Positions 1 to 61,188 of a stretch of DNA of 61,188 nucleotides are shown here, piece after piece. This stretch comes from a virus. Lineage: Duplodnaviria > Caudoviricetes. The stretch is from positions 1 to 61,188 of the IMG/VR virus record IMGVR_UViG_3300021088_000012, one strand, 5' to 3'. Every line of letters starts with the position of its first letter. Positions within the stretch are counted from its first letter, which is position 1. The position numbers and the translations under genes are program-made. The notes beneath the pieces are model-generated. The model did not search any database and had not been told where the DNA came from. It saw only the letters and a list, made by a program, of their open reading frames with translations.

Positions 1-185
1 ATTGTAGAGGCTGCAGCGAGTGCAGCGATTGCAGCGGTTGCCGCGGTTGCGGCGGTTGCAGCGATTGCAGCGGTTGCAGCGATTGCAGCGATTGCAGCGA
101 TTGCCGCGGTTGCAGCGGTTGCAGCGGTTGCCGCGGTTGCAGCGATTGCAGCGGTTGCCGCGGTTGCAGCGGTTGCAGCGGTTGT
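1..185 (+). repeat. 9-nt tandem repeat (TGCAGCGAT/TGCAGCGGT/TGCCGCGGT) encoding Cys-X-X
   Basis: Cys codons every 9 nt from 3 to 183 (21 Cys); same units as 60999-61188. Confidence 0.97.
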
Positions 186-572
186 TATTACCAAACTAAT
201 CTTGAAGGCGAGAAAGACGCCACAGGAACAGGTGAGACTTTGGAACAAATAGGATTCCCCAATGTACCAGTAATTGAAAATATTCATCAGAAAATATTTG
301 AGGCTGCTTCCGGTCCTAAGGCATTGAATATGGGTAATTGGCATACCTGCGATACAACACATTGCCGGGCTGGATGGGTGGAATTCCTGGCGGGTGAGGA
401 AGGAAAGGTGCTCGCTACTAAGACCTCTACACTTTTCGCGGCGATGCAGATCTATAAGAAATCTTCTCCCGAAATAAGGGTATGGCCTCCGAGATTCTTT
501 GAGGACAATGAAACGGCATTGGCTGACATGAAAAAATGCGCTGAACTGGAGAAGGAAAAACAAAAAGCATGA
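3..572 (+). CDS. 3' part of Cys-X-X repeat protein with C-terminal WHTCxTTHCRAGW domain (5' part at 60873-61188)
   Basis: Frame is open from position 3 (CRGCSECSDC...) into the track ORF 240-572. The LNMGNWHTCDTTHCRAGWV domain is one I associate with phage pentapeptide-repeat proteins. Confidence 0.85.
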   Translation, partial: CRGCSECSDCSGCRGCGGCSDCSGCSDCSDCSDCRGCSGCSGCRGCSDCSGCRGCSGCSGCYYQTNLEGEKDATGTGETLEQIGFPNVPVIENIHQKIFEAASGPKALNMGNWHTCDTTHCRAGWVEFLAGEEGKVLATKTSTLFAAMQIYKKSSPEIRVWPPRFFEDNETALADMKKCAELEKEKQKA

Positions 573-6202: not shown

Positions 6203-6416
6203 TATCTTGCGTTTTTGGTTTCTCATTAAAAATCCGCTTGCCGGCCATCCATATTCCGTGGCCGCCCAACACCAGGGGCCAGAACAACGCCACTCCAATA
6301 TTGCGGATATCGAAGAAAGAATCCTTGCTCACCTCTACCTCATTGGTGCAGATCAGAAAAAGGGCTATCCCGCAGGTGAGGGCATAAAGGATGCAGGCGG
6401 TGATTATCCAGATCAT
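6189..6416 (-). CDS. Small two-TM membrane protein
   Basis: Two hydrophobic segments, ALFWPL motif. Confidence 0.6.
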   Translation of the reverse strand: MIWIITACILYALTCGIALFLICTNEVEVSKDSFFDIRNIGVALFWPLVLGGHGIWMAGKRIFNEKPKTQDNVNK

Positions 6417-7165
6417 AGTGAAATTGTTTTAACATATGTTATTTTACCATCTACTATAACCTTTTTTCTTCCTTTACCAGCCAACCCGATCTTCTTTTTA
6501 TGCTCATCACTAAAAACTCTTCCCTTTCCCGCTTCGCTCATATTTCTTCTCGCCTCATCAGTTACGGGAAGCTTATTTTTCTGTGCTAGGCTCATTCTGG
6601 CCCTTGATTCCGATGATCTTTTTAGGCCCAGTTGATTATTGGGCTTACCTTTTTTTGAATCGCTCAGTTTCTTCTTAGTTGCATCGCTCATAATGCGATT
6701 TTTTGAACTTGCGCTCATTTTTTGCCTTGTCTCTTCAGAAAAATTAACTCCTAATCTGGTTTTTAATTTTGGATTCCCTTTAAGTGCTTTGCTTATTTTT
6801 TCTCTTGTTTCCTGAGAAACAAATCTGCCTTTGAAAGCTATGCTCAATTTTCTCTTCTCTTCTTCTCCCAATTTACCGCGCGTCCCACCTTCTTTCAAAT
6901 TCAACAATTTAACACCGCAATCTTTATATAATTTCATGTATAAGCATTCATATTCATTTAATATTGATTGCGTTATATCATCGGGAAGTTCGTGAATTAT
7001 CTCAAAGCAATGATTATTTGACCCATACTTATTGAAAGACTTCATAAGTAATGTGGTTTTCTTTTTAGAGGGCTTACGATGGTCATGCCATCTTTGCTTC
7101 ATATTTCTCGATTGTCCAATATAAATCGAATTGGAAGGTGAAATTATTCTGTAAATTCCAGTCAT
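6413..7165 (-). CDS. GIY-YIG homing endonuclease with NUMOD3 repeats
   Basis: MTGIYRI...IYIGQS...QRWHDH; repeated SEETRQKMS/SQETREKIS/SDEHKKKIG. Confidence 0.93.
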   Translation of the reverse strand: MTGIYRIISPSNSIYIGQSRNMKQRWHDHRKPSKKKTTLLMKSFNKYGSNNHCFEIIHELPDDITQSILNEYECLYMKLYKDCGVKLLNLKEGGTRGKLGEEEKRKLSIAFKGRFVSQETREKISKALKGNPKLKTRLGVNFSEETRQKMSASSKNRIMSDATKKKLSDSKKGKPNNQLGLKRSSESRARMSLAQKNKLPVTDEARRNMSEAGKGRVFSDEHKKKIGLAGKGRKKVIVDGKITYVKTISL

Positions 7166-57557: not shown

Positions 57558-58942
57558 TGGGCATCACTGTTAAGGCCCTGGAGCCATTTAAAATTCTCTA
57601 TCATCTTCCGAAGGGAACTAATACTGTCGTTCTAATTGGTGGCCGTGGCGGGGCTAAAACCTACGAAGCCAGCAAGTTTATAGCCTTTCAGGCAACTATC
57701 AAGAAAAAAAGGTGTGTTGTTCTTCGGGATGAAAAGGAATTAATCCGGGAATCTATCCTGAATGAGGTTCTCATGCGATACGATACCGCGAATACCTCGG
57801 GTGCTCTTGGTTATTTCTACCAGCGGCTGGATACCGGCATTAAGGATATAAAGACGAATGAAATGCTTGTTTTCACCAAAGGATTCCGGGCAAGCACGCT
57901 GGAAAAGAAAGCCAATCTGAAGAGCATAAGCAATATAGATATGGCTGTAATCGAGGAAGCGGAAGATATCCGGGATGAAGAAAAATTCAATGTTTTCTCC
58001 GATGGGGTGCGCAAAGATGGCGCATTGATCGTAATTATTCTGAATACTCCTGATTTAAGTCACTGGATCGTACGAAGGTGGTTCACCCTGGAAAAGGTCG
58101 AGGATGGCTATTTCGATGTCATCCCAAAGCAGATTCCCGGTCTGGTGGTGATCAAGACAAGCTTTGAGGATAATCCCCATCTGCCGGCGACAATCGTTGA
58201 ACGGTATAAATCCTACGGGGATCCGGCCAGCCACCTGTACAACAAGCATTATTACCTCACGGCTATCCGGGGCTTGGCCAGCACTGGCCGGAAAGGGCAG
58301 ATCTTCAGCGGATGGAAAAGCATCACGAATCAGGAGTTTAATGATATCGATGCCCGGTCAATCTTCGGACAGGACTTCGGAACTACCTCGCCGGCAGCCT
58401 TGGTGGAAGCCAAGATTGTGAATAACAGGATTTATGTCAGGCAGCACAACTACCAGGGAATGACCGAAAAGCAACTCGGACTCCTTTATTGCCGCCTGGG
58501 ACTCAAAGAAGAGATCATTATTGCGGATTCCGCCGAACCGATGGCAATACGCCGCCTGCGCAATGGTTGGTCCGTAGACGAGTTATCGGAGGAAGAGCGG
58601 AAAGATTATACCTCGTGGAAAGAAGGGGCCCTTAAACCGCCTCCAAATGCCCCACACGCGACCGCACAGGAGGTAAAACCGTGGAAATATGCCCAACTCT
58701 TAACTGGGTTTCACATCTATCCGGCTTTCAAAGGCCCCGGGACAGTAATTGCCGGAATCAAAAAGGTGATGGACTATGAGGTGTTCATTACGGAGGATTC
58801 GACCGATCTTTGGTTCGAATATGCAAATTATGTATGGTCCTTGGATAAAAATTCTCAGCCTACTGATGAACCGGAAGACGCCCATAACCACGGGGCTGAT
58901 TCTATACGCTATATAATTTCCGGTAAGGGCCGATATTACTAA
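57557..58942 (+). CDS. terL: Terminase large subunit (PBSX-type)
   Basis: GGRGGAKT Walker A, VIEEAE, GQDFG, ADSAEP, DAHNHGADSIRY. Confidence 0.95.
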   Translation: MGITVKALEPFKILYHLPKGTNTVVLIGGRGGAKTYEASKFIAFQATIKKKRCVVLRDEKELIRESILNEVLMRYDTANTSGALGYFYQRLDTGIKDIKTNEMLVFTKGFRASTLEKKANLKSISNIDMAVIEEAEDIRDEEKFNVFSDGVRKDGALIVIILNTPDLSHWIVRRWFTLEKVEDGYFDVIPKQIPGLVVIKTSFEDNPHLPATIVERYKSYGDPASHLYNKHYYLTAIRGLASTGRKGQIFSGWKSITNQEFNDIDARSIFGQDFGTTSPAALVEAKIVNNRIYVRQHNYQGMTEKQLGLLYCRLGLKEEIIIADSAEPMAIRRLRNGWSVDELSEEERKDYTSWKEGALKPPPNAPHATAQEVKPWKYAQLLTGFHIYPAFKGPGTVIAGIKKVMDYEVFITEDSTDLWFEYANYVWSLDKNSQPTDEPEDAHNHGADSIRYIISGKGRYY

Positions 58943-59238
58943 TTCAGGGAAACAAATGCAATATTTTTTGTCTCGTAATTGGTTATAACCGATTGCGTCC
59001 CGAACCTCCTGGCATCGAACCACCAGATTCCTCCCCCCACAATGCGCCGGCAGCCGCAGGAGATCTCGAACCTATTCGGATCCAGGATCAGCCCCACATC
59101 AACAAAGACATCCCCGCAAAAGCACGCTTTGAGTCCCAGAACCTGGTAGGATTCTCCTTTGATCAGCGGGCAGCCTAGGCGATCTTTCTTAAGTCGCTGA
59201 TCGTGAATGCAAATGATCGTATCTCGGAGCTGAATCAT
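58939..59238 (-). CDS. Small Cys-containing protein, convergent with TerL
   Basis: IICI, LIKGESYQV, CFCG, CGC, WFDARRF. Confidence 0.62.
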   Translation of the reverse strand: MIQLRDTIICIHDQRLKKDRLGCPLIKGESYQVLGLKACFCGDVFVDVGLILDPNRFEISCGCRRIVGGGIWWFDARRFGTQSVITNYETKNIAFVSLN

Positions 59239-59281
59239 AAGCTAAAAGTAAATAAAAATGCCAAAAAACTCGGGAAAATAC

Positions 59282-59312
59282 TTGCAAATTCGATAAACGT
59301 TTATTATCTTTA
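59282..59312 (+). promoter_or_regulatory. Bacteroidetes sigmaA-type promoter (-33 TTG, -7 TATCTTTA)
   Basis: TTG, 20-nt spacer, TATCTTTA (consensus TAnnTTTG) upstream of the small-gene cluster. Confidence 0.55.
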
Positions 59313-59357
59313 TATCAGCAATCAGAGATTAATACTAAAAATTAAAAACTTACAATT

Positions 59358-59600
59358 ATGGAAACATACCAGATAATCAATCAGTTAAAGAGCATGGACG
59401 AACACGAGGCTATGCTGACCAATTCAATTAATGCCCTTTTAGCGGCTAATGAAACCACACTTTATGAGGACTTAACCAAAGATGATGCGGATGACTTTAA
59501 CATGTTGTGGAAGCTACGCAGTGAAGTAAGGGGATTTAAATGTCGCATGGCTGCTATCGCTGGTAGTTTTGCTTCTTATTGCACACAAGAATTAGCCTAA
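59358..59600 (+). CDS. Hypothetical early protein
   Basis: 80-aa ORF with AT-rich initiation region. Confidence 0.65.
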   Translation: METYQIINQLKSMDEHEAMLTNSINALLAANETTLYEDLTKDDADDFNMLWKLRSEVRGFKCRMAAIAGSFASYCTQELA

Positions 59601-59642
59601 TCTCTATAACGTTTTGATTAATTAACTGAAAAACAACATTTT

Positions 59643-59825
59643 ATGGAAAATAAAATATTTTTTACCATCCTCCTCTGTAATGAAAAATACGAAGATGAAA
59701 CCAGTACTGGATGTGGAGATCCTTACTCAGCCACCCGGTATAAATCACAGGAACAGGCTCAACAGCAGATTAATACGATGCAATATCCTAACGCTGCAAT
59801 AATTGACTTCAGCGTCGAAGATTAA
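59643..59825 (+). CDS. Hypothetical early protein
   Basis: 60-aa ORF. Confidence 0.6.
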   Translation: MENKIFFTILLCNEKYEDETSTGCGDPYSATRYKSQEQAQQQINTMQYPNAAIIDFSVED

Positions 59826-59858
59826 TCACCTCTTATAATACTTATAAATCAACACATT

Positions 59859-60077
59859 ATGGCTTACTCAGCACTTACAATTGGACAAGAAATAGAACTC
59901 CTCGAAGATATGCATAGCTGTGTATCGGAAGGAAAGCGCGTTATCAGCAAAGGCACAAAGATGCGCTACTACTTTAGCCAGCTTACTTGGGATTACTTCA
60001 AAGATTCCGCGGGCAATACGTTAATAATAATGGGAGGGGCCGGATCTCCCGACTGGGAGCGCGTAAAGGCTAACTGA
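59859..60077 (+). CDS. Hypothetical early protein (stop codon inside the ribozyme core)
   Basis: 72-aa ORF. Confidence 0.62.
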   Translation: MAYSALTIGQEIELLEDMHSCVSEGKRVISKGTKMRYYFSQLTWDYFKDSAGNTLIIMGGAGSPDWERVKAN

Positions 60078-60142
60078 AGAGGCTTGAATAGCCGAAACCG
60101 GAGTGGGGATATAGTAAAGTGTTATCTCAGCCGGTCTTAGTC
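60068..60142 (+). ncRNA. Hammerhead ribozyme, type I
   Basis: Stem I GGCUAA/UUAGUC; core CUGAAGA; stem II GGCU-UGAAU-AGCC; GAAA; stem III CCGG/CCGG; GUC cleavage triplet at 60134-60136. Confidence 0.92.
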
Positions 60143-60177
60143 ACTTAATTAATCAATCTTAAATACCTTTTTTAGTT

Positions 60178-60402
60178 ATGAAAAAATACACTCAATTAAC
60201 CGCCGGCCAGAAGGCTAATTTCAAGTCATTTTGTGTTGCGCAAAGGTTCGCCTTATATGGAATGGGCGGATTTACCCCCTTATGGTACGCTATGACTGTT
60301 GACGGCGTTCTCATGAATCGCCCTTTATTCCCTTATCAATTCGACAGACCTTATAAGATGGGGGACATATCCGGCAAAAACGGCTCAATGATCAATGTCT
60401 AA
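60178..60402 (+). CDS. Hypothetical early protein
   Basis: 74-aa ORF. Confidence 0.6.
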   Translation: MKKYTQLTAGQKANFKSFCVAQRFALYGMGGFTPLWYAMTVDGVLMNRPLFPYQFDRPYKMGDISGKNGSMINV

Positions 60403-60485
60403 TCATTCATTATTAATTAATGTAGGAAGCCCTGCACTCGTAAATGGTGCGGGGATTTCTGGGCAAAAAGATTAAATTTACCATT

Positions 60486-60851
60486 ATGTCGAATTGTTTA
60501 GAATGCGGAGCAGAATTAATTAATACGCCGGGTAAGCGACCAAAGCAATTCTGCAATGTTACACACCGGTCGAATTATTGGCAGAAGCAAAAGCGATTGG
60601 CGGCAAAGGCGGATATTCCCGATCCGGGTCCGGTGATCAGAGAGGCGATTGCCAGCGGGAAGCCGATAATCACGGATGCGGCTATCGAATATATCCCCCT
60701 GGTGCCAGAGCAGGCACAACCGGACCCAATCAACCGGACATTAATACGAAGGTCCCAACCCCCTGTAATGCCCCCAGGATTGTCTCCTTTACAGCAGCAG
60801 GCATGGAAGGCAGAGGAACGAAAAAGACTTCAGGAGGAGAGATTTAAATAA
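60486..60851 (+). CDS. Zn-ribbon protein with Pro-rich tail
   Basis: CLECG...RPKQFCNVTHR; ATG 60486. Confidence 0.65.
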   Translation: MSNCLECGAELINTPGKRPKQFCNVTHRSNYWQKQKRLAAKADIPDPGPVIREAIASGKPIITDAAIEYIPLVPEQAQPDPINRTLIRRSQPPVMPPGLSPLQQQAWKAEERKRLQEERFK

Positions 60852-60872
60852 ACCAATAACAAAATCATAATC

Positions 60873-61188
60873 ATGATACAAATTTTTGCAAATTATTCAG
60901 AATTCCTTCGCCGAGAAGATAAAGACCTCAACGGGGTTACACAAGAATTCGCAAATTTGCATCCGGACTGGGAGAAAGAAAATGCAACCAATAAGGGCTG
61001 TTGGAATTGCAGCGATTGCCGCGGTTGCAGCGATTGCAGCGATTGCCGCGGTTGCAGCGGTTGCCGCGGTTGCAGCGATTGCAGCGGTTGCAGCGATTGC
61101 AGCGATTGCAGCGGTTGCCGCGGTTGCCGCGGTTGCAGCGATTGCAGCGGTTGCAGCGATTGCAGCGATTGCAGAGATTGCCGCGGTT
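60873..61188 (+). CDS. 5' part of Cys-X-X repeat protein (runs off the window end)
   Basis: MIQIFANYSEFLRRED...NKGCWNCSDCRGC..., open to 61188. Confidence 0.85.
   Translation, partial: MIQIFANYSEFLRREDKDLNGVTQEFANLHPDWEKENATNKGCWNCSDCRGCSDCSDCRGCSGCRGCSDCSGCSDCSDCSGCRGCRGCSDCSGCSDCSDCRDCRG
60999..61188 (+). repeat. 9-nt Cys-X-X tandem repeat
   Basis: 21 complete units plus 1 nt; same units as 1-185. Confidence 0.97.

Follow-up and report, generated by a model that had tools for sequence, protein, structure and literature searches.

The described systems closest to the site reported here are the hammerhead ribozymes of prophages, which flank genes and for which cleavage in vitro occurred at every site of native constructs of about 2 kb (Perreault 2011, PMC3088659). 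Clustered prophage hammerheads have been proposed to convert long phage transcripts into gene-length mRNAs (PMC3088659). A further comparison is offered by HHphage of the haloviruses HF1 and HF2, which lies 13 nt upstream of a start codon and for which a mapped transcript 5' end falls within 3 nt of the cut site (PMC3088659). The present locus is a hammerhead at positions 60068-60142 (+) of the window, by which is meant the whole 61,188-base stretch of DNA that was analysed. As far as the main text describes them, the clustered prophage hammerheads resemble it in their canonical core, in their position between phage genes and in the several copies per operon that are found among its relatives, but unlike them it is present as a single copy in the window (PMC3088659). 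With HHphage, by the same account, it shares the cut, the short leader and the geometry with respect to the ATG; however, HHphage is a variant in core and structure from an archaeal virus and needs high Mg2+ (PMC3088659), whereas the window carries the standard core and would be cut 41 nt from the ATG. The term "stop codon" occurs 0 times in the main text of Perreault 2011, where supplementary alignments may show an overlap, and neither a 6-bp stem I with an A-A cap nor a fixed distance to the ATG was found in that main text, where supplement or figures may show them (PMC3088659).

The window comprises a whole IMG/VR record, rated complete and derived from a soil phage, and Pfam and PHROG annotation places within it the genes of a tailed phage, including those for a portal, a major head protein, a helicase, methyltransferases and a terminase. 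A tRNA scan of the whole window returned none. The gene upstream of the ribozyme belongs to a block of small genes without annotated function, located between the terminase and a minus-strand cluster, and a blastn search of 59300-61000 against a phage collection gave zero matches. This gene had been labelled as early in the first-pass annotation, a label for which no support was obtained; the gene lies in the small-gene block after the terminase, and promoter scans were uninformative. Counts of sigma-70-type promoters and of terminators across 58900-61188 did not rise above those in shuffles, and TAnnTTTG, a promoter motif of Bacteroidota, showed no enrichment with or without an upstream TTTG and did not occur near the ribozyme. 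In the minus-strand gene cluster, an ORF at 6413-7165 (-) has a strong match to a homing endonuclease (phrog_314, E 1e-29). At the ends of the record, a single ORF runs in frame from 60873-61188 into 1-572 (+), its junction codon being formed by base 61188 and bases 1-2; on both sides of the junction it encodes a long run of Cys-x-x triplets (CSD/CRG/CSG, with an 18-nt period in the DNA), followed by a non-repetitive C-terminal part with a weak match to PHROG 15341, a family whose function is not known. Since this ORF continues in frame across the ends, the "linear" record represents a genome that is circular or circularly permuted.

The site has all of the positions by which a hammerhead is defined, with stems of 6, 4 and 5 bp, and the strand order is that of the stem I 5' strand, CUGANGA, the stem II hairpin, GAAA, the stem III hairpin, UC and the stem I 3' strand. 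Stem I is open and carries both ends while stems II and III are closed by loops, as in the type I topology. Stem I pairs GGCUAA (60068-60073) with UUAGUC (60137-60142) through 6 bp, one of them G-U, and is flanked by an unpaired A directly 5' of the stem (60067) and by A60143, which together form the A/A cap typical of the class described below. The core strand C3-A9, CUGAAGA (60074-60080), aligns to the covariance-model consensus and is followed by the stem II hairpin (60081-60093), in which GGCU (60081-60084) pairs with AGCC (60090-60093) across the 5-nt loop UGAAU. Core G12, A13 and A14 (60094-60096) are supported by the sequence, the motif scan and the model alignment. Stem III (60097-60135) consists of the pair A15.1-U16.1 (60097/60135) and of CCGG/CCGG (60098-60101 with 60131-60134), beyond which, past an internal loop, 60106-60111 pairs with 60123-60128 in a 6-bp extension closed by an 11-nt loop, so that the region, with 29 nt between the two CCGG strands, reaches an unusual 37 nt. 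The pairs that abut the core are all standard, namely G60081-C60093 (10.1-11.1), A60073-U60137 (1.1-2.1) and A60097-U60135 (15.1-16.1). By the hammerhead consensus, C17 and the predicted scissile bond fall at 60136-60137, such that UUAGUC would constitute the first six bases of the downstream RNA; N7 is A, which 9% of the class have there, and H17 is C, which is found in 90% (134 members among the matches listed). The first-pass annotation had described a complete type I hammerhead here, and this description stands with all of its coordinates correct and with three stems, a minimum-energy fold that forms the three-way junction, and relatives that agree.

The ribozyme is interlocked with the gene that precedes it. 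The upstream ORF (59859-60077, +; 72 aa in the ORF list) ends in the codons AAG GCU AAC UGA, which enter stem I and the core, so that the 5' strand of stem I is coding and the UGA at 60075-60077 is at once core U4-G5-A6 and the stop of the ORF, as the initial reading of the locus had claimed. An out-of-frame UAA lies at 60071-60073 within the stem I 5' strand, and a UGA in the third frame lies in the stem II hairpin at 60085-60087. Each frame thus meets a stop triplet within the first 20 bases of the ribozyme (UAA 60071, UGA 60075, UGA 60085). On the other side of the predicted cut, the leader (60143-60177, +) consists of A60143, the cap partner, and an AU-rich stretch in which a clear Shine-Dalgarno sequence is not apparent; joined to 60137-60142 it would make a 5' UTR of 41 nt ahead of the ATG of the downstream gene (60178-60402, +; 74 aa). 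The downstream RNA had been expected to begin about 40 nt before this ORF, in agreement with the 41 nt that separate the predicted cut from the ATG.

A motif scan of both strands of the window gave this single match, and 1000 dinucleotide shuffles yielded on average 0.001 matches as good as this one, or 0.006 when the settings were relaxed, although a frequency of 0.001 per window is not decisive alone, as the scan covers very many windows. The minimum-energy fold of 60060-60150 is the hammerhead three-way junction with stem III extended by the 6-bp helix, and its energy is unremarkable (z-score -0.73). Stem II has a pair probability of at least 0.9 in all contexts and stem III one of about 0.8, while that of stem I is 0.41 when 91 nt are folded and drops to 0.01 in a context of 442 nt, which suggests that folding would depend on the order of co-transcriptional events and on a tertiary contact. 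Where a tertiary contact between stem I and loop II, of the kind that allows fast cutting at cellular Mg2+, would lie, the class has A/A after exactly 6 bp of stem I and a U as the first base of loop II, and the window keeps these letters.

The search with Rfam hammerhead models that had been proposed as a check on the site (Rfam release 15, hammerhead clan CL00010) returned no match in the window at the gathering score, nor any in 59900-60300 at E values up to 10; by Rfam's gathering score, therefore, the window would not be called a hammerhead. Nor was there any gathering-score match in nine loci with clear relatives, and the Rfam release 15 cut-offs are reached by none of the compact type I hammerheads of L001-L011 and the window. 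In relative L011, for instance, RF03152 (RAGATH-1-hammerhead) gives 17 bits against a cut-off of 56.3 and RF00008 (Hammerhead_3) 13.6 against 48.5, although in the alignment to RF03152 the core and stems I and III of L011 fall as expected for a type I hammerhead. The scores are far under the cut-offs and the class is uncaptured by Rfam's own criterion; as clear relatives are also missed, the blank is taken to reflect insensitivity to a compact class and not counter-evidence. A covariance model (R1) was constructed on 50 hammerheads of other phages, the window being excluded, and when run on the whole window with filters off it recovered 60070-60140 at 41.7 bits, with an E-value of 3.3e-8 that, as with all R1 values, is rough because the calibration was rough. 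The next-best match in the window scored 15 bits (E 0.25), and with no second match above that score this phage has one hammerhead of the class. The site is not a chance match.

The window hammerhead belongs to a large class of compact hammerheads at the gene junctions of tailed phages, a class defined in this analysis from IMG/VR loci. A pattern that covers the core and stem II and extends into the start of stem III was found in 11 viral contig stretches, 9 of which hold a complete type I hammerhead, and the stem I sequences of these 9 are all different and yet all pair. In two GC-rich loci of identical sequence, L004:5456-5482 and L006:3870-3896, core, stem II and stem III start match and the scan finds the hammerhead incomplete; by eye, a G occupies the H17 place after the closing U of stem III, possibly marking a decayed copy or a variant. 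When only the core, stem II and GAAAC are fixed, the pattern occurs in at least 119 viral stretches and gives at least 137 matches in 130 loci (1.2 Mb); 120 of these 137 also possess stem III, U-H and stem I, although the pattern demands none of the three. By motif scan the class comprises at least 142 distinct ribozymes in 130 loci, in a sample biased to one stem II sequence, GGCU/AGCC being fixed for 109 of the 142. Copies may be multiple, as 24 of 103 hammerhead-bearing loci hold 2-5 of them among the matches listed; in L011:3117-5278, L005:6593-7816, L010:9789-11289 and others, 3-5 class hammerheads stand in a row, each between ORFs of the same strand.

The architecture of the class is regular. 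Among the matches listed, 135 of 142 have a stem I of exactly 6 bp, an A precedes it in 98% and follows it in 97% of 134 members, loop II begins with U in all members, and UGAAU, found in 10 of 134, is one of the commonest loops. In the same listed matches, the next ATG (of an ORF of at least 40 codons) mostly lies 19-30 nt past the cut, at about 25 nt, compared with 41 in the window, and the stem III region has a mode of 14 and a maximum of 56 nt, the window's being the second longest of 134. The window has what delimits the compact class, that is, a 6-bp stem I with an A on both sides, a 4-bp stem II whose 5-nt loop begins with U and a significant R1 score, and is typical in the 6 bp of stem I, both capping As, the loop UGAAU and the 4-bp stem II. 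It departs from the class in the long stem III, in the longer leader and in the second base past stem I, which is C (seen in 3% of members) and not A. In an alignment of 16 sequences, 98.7% of cells are paired and 13 of 15 pairs have changed on both sides, a level attained by 0 of 500 shuffles; 7 of the 16 came from a scan that demands pairing and are thus not independent for this measure, while the other 9, including the window, were found or checked on core and stem II letters only.

The sharing of a stop codon with the ribozyme is likewise a property of the class. For the 142 ribozymes an upstream ORF of at least 50 codons was sought, with gene ends taken from ORFs and not from curated annotation; 15 had none, 14 had two candidate frames and 113, the window included, were clear. 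Among the matches listed, 22 of 113 stop at the core UGA (with AAC as the last codon in 17 of the 22), 12 of 113 at the last triplet of stem I and 19 of 113 at a triplet that opens loop II, and these three places are the main end points, class-wide, of upstream ORFs that enter the ribozyme. Overall, and still among the matches listed, the stop lies within the ribozyme in 62 of 113 (about 55%), abuts stem I and shares the capping A in 30 (about 27%) and lies further upstream in 21, and among the ORFs that end within it the three frames are represented about equally (23:22:17). A separate hand tally of the 21 commonest loops placed UGA, UAA or UAG at the first bases of loop II in about 65 of 112, which is no clear excess, and the idea that these triplets are selected as stops was rejected. 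Even frame use together with frequent overlap makes the overlap look like gene packing rather than a special device, and the simplest reading is that upstream genes lie tightly against a motif in which every frame is halted within 14 bases, or have drifted into it. That core and stop have a UGA in common hence looks like a by-product of packing that is common in the class and not peculiar to this gene. A full-text search, to which subscription journals and supplements were largely closed, found no paper on a stop codon inside a phage hammerhead.

Judging from sequence conservation, both flanking genes are real, conserved small genes. The upstream protein has 10 homologues at 63-92% identity, and the downstream protein (ORF 60178-60402) has 7 at 70-91% identity together with a weak, sub-threshold match to DUF7055. 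The upstream protein matches no Pfam or PHROG family, and in viral contigs its only relative is L137, which covers the same range as L132 and hence adds nothing; for the downstream protein, viral contigs gave no relatives. Like the window's protein, 7 of the 10 upstream homologues end in Asn, and in P0002-P0008 this ending recurs seven times despite differing preceding residues (KAN, KTN, HKTN, HKAN). As the last two bases of stem I and C3 spell AAC, the terminal Asn of the family would be dictated by the ribozyme.

In a metagenome scan, homologues of the upstream gene were recovered at 6 loci, and in 3 of these R1 detects a ribozyme at the gene end. In L131 (56.4 bits) the gene stops at UAA, the last three bases of the stem I 5' strand; in L134 (56.2 bits) the gene is longer, encoding 123 aa, and its final AAC UGA runs into the core exactly as in the window; and in L132 (33.2 bits) the gene also ends AAC UGA in the core and a 109-nt stem III region separates the two halves. 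From copy to copy, the GGCUAA of stem I is replaced by GCUUAA and GGUUAA with compensation on the opposite strand, stem II changes from GGCU/AGCC to GUCC/GGAC and GGGU/ACCC, the loop UGAAU is kept in L131 and L134, and all three fold as hammerheads. The L132 copy (L132:2860-3006, the same contig range as L137) has a stem III of 109 nt as against 29 nt in the near-identical L134, with the core, U-C and the stem I 3' strand intact and a minimum-energy fold that is still the hammerhead. Stem III thus seems to tolerate insertions in this lineage, the window included. A large insertion between the halves is also tolerated by the discontinuous hammerhead in the 3' UTR of mouse Clec2 (reviewed in PMC6765202). 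As the review presents it, however, the Clec2 hammerhead is eukaryotic, has an insertion of several hundred nt and resides in a 3' UTR (PMC6765202); it has no relation to the window in sequence or context. L133, L135 and L136 have the upstream gene but no ribozyme by R1, and the terminase relatives L013-L015 have no hammerhead by motif scan or R1. The closest of these by terminase, L013 (75% identity), has no upstream gene block and beyond the terminase shares with the window only the minus-strand ORF 58939-59238. With a ribozyme at 3 of 6 homologous loci and none in L013, the ribozyme is dispensable for the gene, and comparison of these sequences indicates that it is under selection as RNA, yet comes and goes.

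Taken together, these data allow the construction of a model which we hold to be probable, namely that the site is a genuine type I hammerhead that constitutively cuts a polycistronic RNA between two cistrons. We infer transcription through the site, self-cleavage and the consequences of new RNA ends. The model proposes that the ribozyme is transcribed within a polycistronic RNA spanning the small genes that follow the terminase, and that as soon as the polymerase has completed the 3' strand of stem I (60137-60142), the three-way junction may form and the RNA would cut itself after C60136. With type I topology nearly all of the ribozyme remains on the upstream side of the cut, and the upstream product would then hold the whole 72-codon ORF with its stop and end in stems II and III with a 2',3'-cyclic phosphate, whereas the downstream product would begin with a 5'-OH and carry the 41-nt AU-rich, unstructured leader before ORF 60178. 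The two cistrons would in this way be uncoupled, each fragment having its own stability and translation, in agreement with what has been proposed for clustered prophage hammerheads and with the transcript end mapped near the HHphage cut site (PMC3088659). Ends of the 5'-OH and cyclic-phosphate type are poor substrates for end-dependent bacterial nucleases, and cleavage may therefore give the cistrons separate lifetimes and the downstream mRNA a defined 5' UTR. The narrow class-wide distance between cut and ATG supports a role in defining that 5' UTR. Ribozyme insulators engineered into the 5' UTRs of synthetic operons similarly provide a defined downstream 5' end whatever lies upstream, although these are man-made parts whose resemblance to the working model is functional only. 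Cutting does not appear to act by unmasking the start site, a possibility that is not supported because the predicted unpaired probability of the downstream start region is unchanged, at 0.62 uncleaved and 0.60 cleaved.

An alternate scenario retains the hammerhead and places it under the control of the ribosome, in that ribosomes at or near the core UGA would unwind stem I and the core, such that the RNA is cut only without upstream translation and the release and stability of the downstream mRNA are tied to translation of the upstream gene. A ribosome reaches roughly a dozen bases 3' of its A site, and with the stop within the core, the 5' strand of stem I coding and stem I itself marginally stable alone and easily disturbed, interference between translation and folding at stem I and the core is likely in principle; in 92 of 113 cases among the matches listed, some of the ribozyme would be occupied by a ribosome terminating at the upstream stop. 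However, the even frames and the 21 of 113 stops further upstream fit packing better than selection on ribosome position, and as the cut is irreversible and the stop occupied only part of the time, cleavage would be slowed rather than blocked. A full-text search found no publication on such coupling for phage hammerheads. We therefore regard translational gating at this site as unlikely, and its class-wide form, in which the ribosome acts as a regulator and cutting at a junction waits for a pause or an end of upstream translation, as likewise unlikely. If true, it would turn a constitutive ribozyme into a translation sensor that sets the ratio and the lifetime of neighbouring phage mRNAs.

Two further readings take RNA cutting out of the centre of the explanation. 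The ribozyme may mark the border of an exchangeable cassette, either as a recombination joint or as a traveller with small genes, with RNA cutting secondary or lost, as could be proposed from the succession of upstream family, ribozyme and then unrelated downstream ORFs in the window, L131 and L134, from the presence of the ribozyme in just 3 of 6 homologous loci, from the closest terminase relative, which shares nothing of the block except the minus-strand ORF, and from other phage loci in which 2-5 copies flank small genes. However, all catalytic positions are kept and the stems show compensatory changes, which argues for selection on the RNA fold and not on DNA identity; moreover, stems I and III are nearly all different between copies, leaving about 25 conserved bases and thus little for homologous exchange, and we consider this origin very unlikely. 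The same kept positions bear on the possibility that the consensus letters are a chance match or a dead relic in an RNA that does not cut. The empty Rfam result, the ordinary z-score of the fold energy, the long stem III, the off-consensus second base after stem I, and the expectation that a 0.001-per-window event will occur somewhere across very many windows would all be compatible with such a relic, yet not one core position is mutated, a model blind to the window finds it at E 3.3e-8, the class features outside the core (6-bp stem I, A/A cap, common loop II) are present, and the ribozyme recurs at homologous gene ends with compensatory changes. A chance or dead site is accordingly judged highly improbable, and the model of a constitutively cutting hammerhead is the one carried forward.

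The purpose of hammerheads in phages and bacteria was described in 2019 as still in need of definition (review, PMC6765202). In this setting, the present site provides a clean example of a canonical hammerhead in a complete phage genome. As the curated Rfam models miss the class, phage annotation pipelines would under-report it. The more useful result is the layout of the class, with a stop in or at the ribozyme, a capped 6-bp stem I, the cut, a leader of about 25 nt and the ATG, since its regularity makes the function of phage hammerheads testable. Reporters could be used to ask whether these ribozymes define the 5' ends of phage mRNAs and whether upstream ribosomes interfere with cutting.
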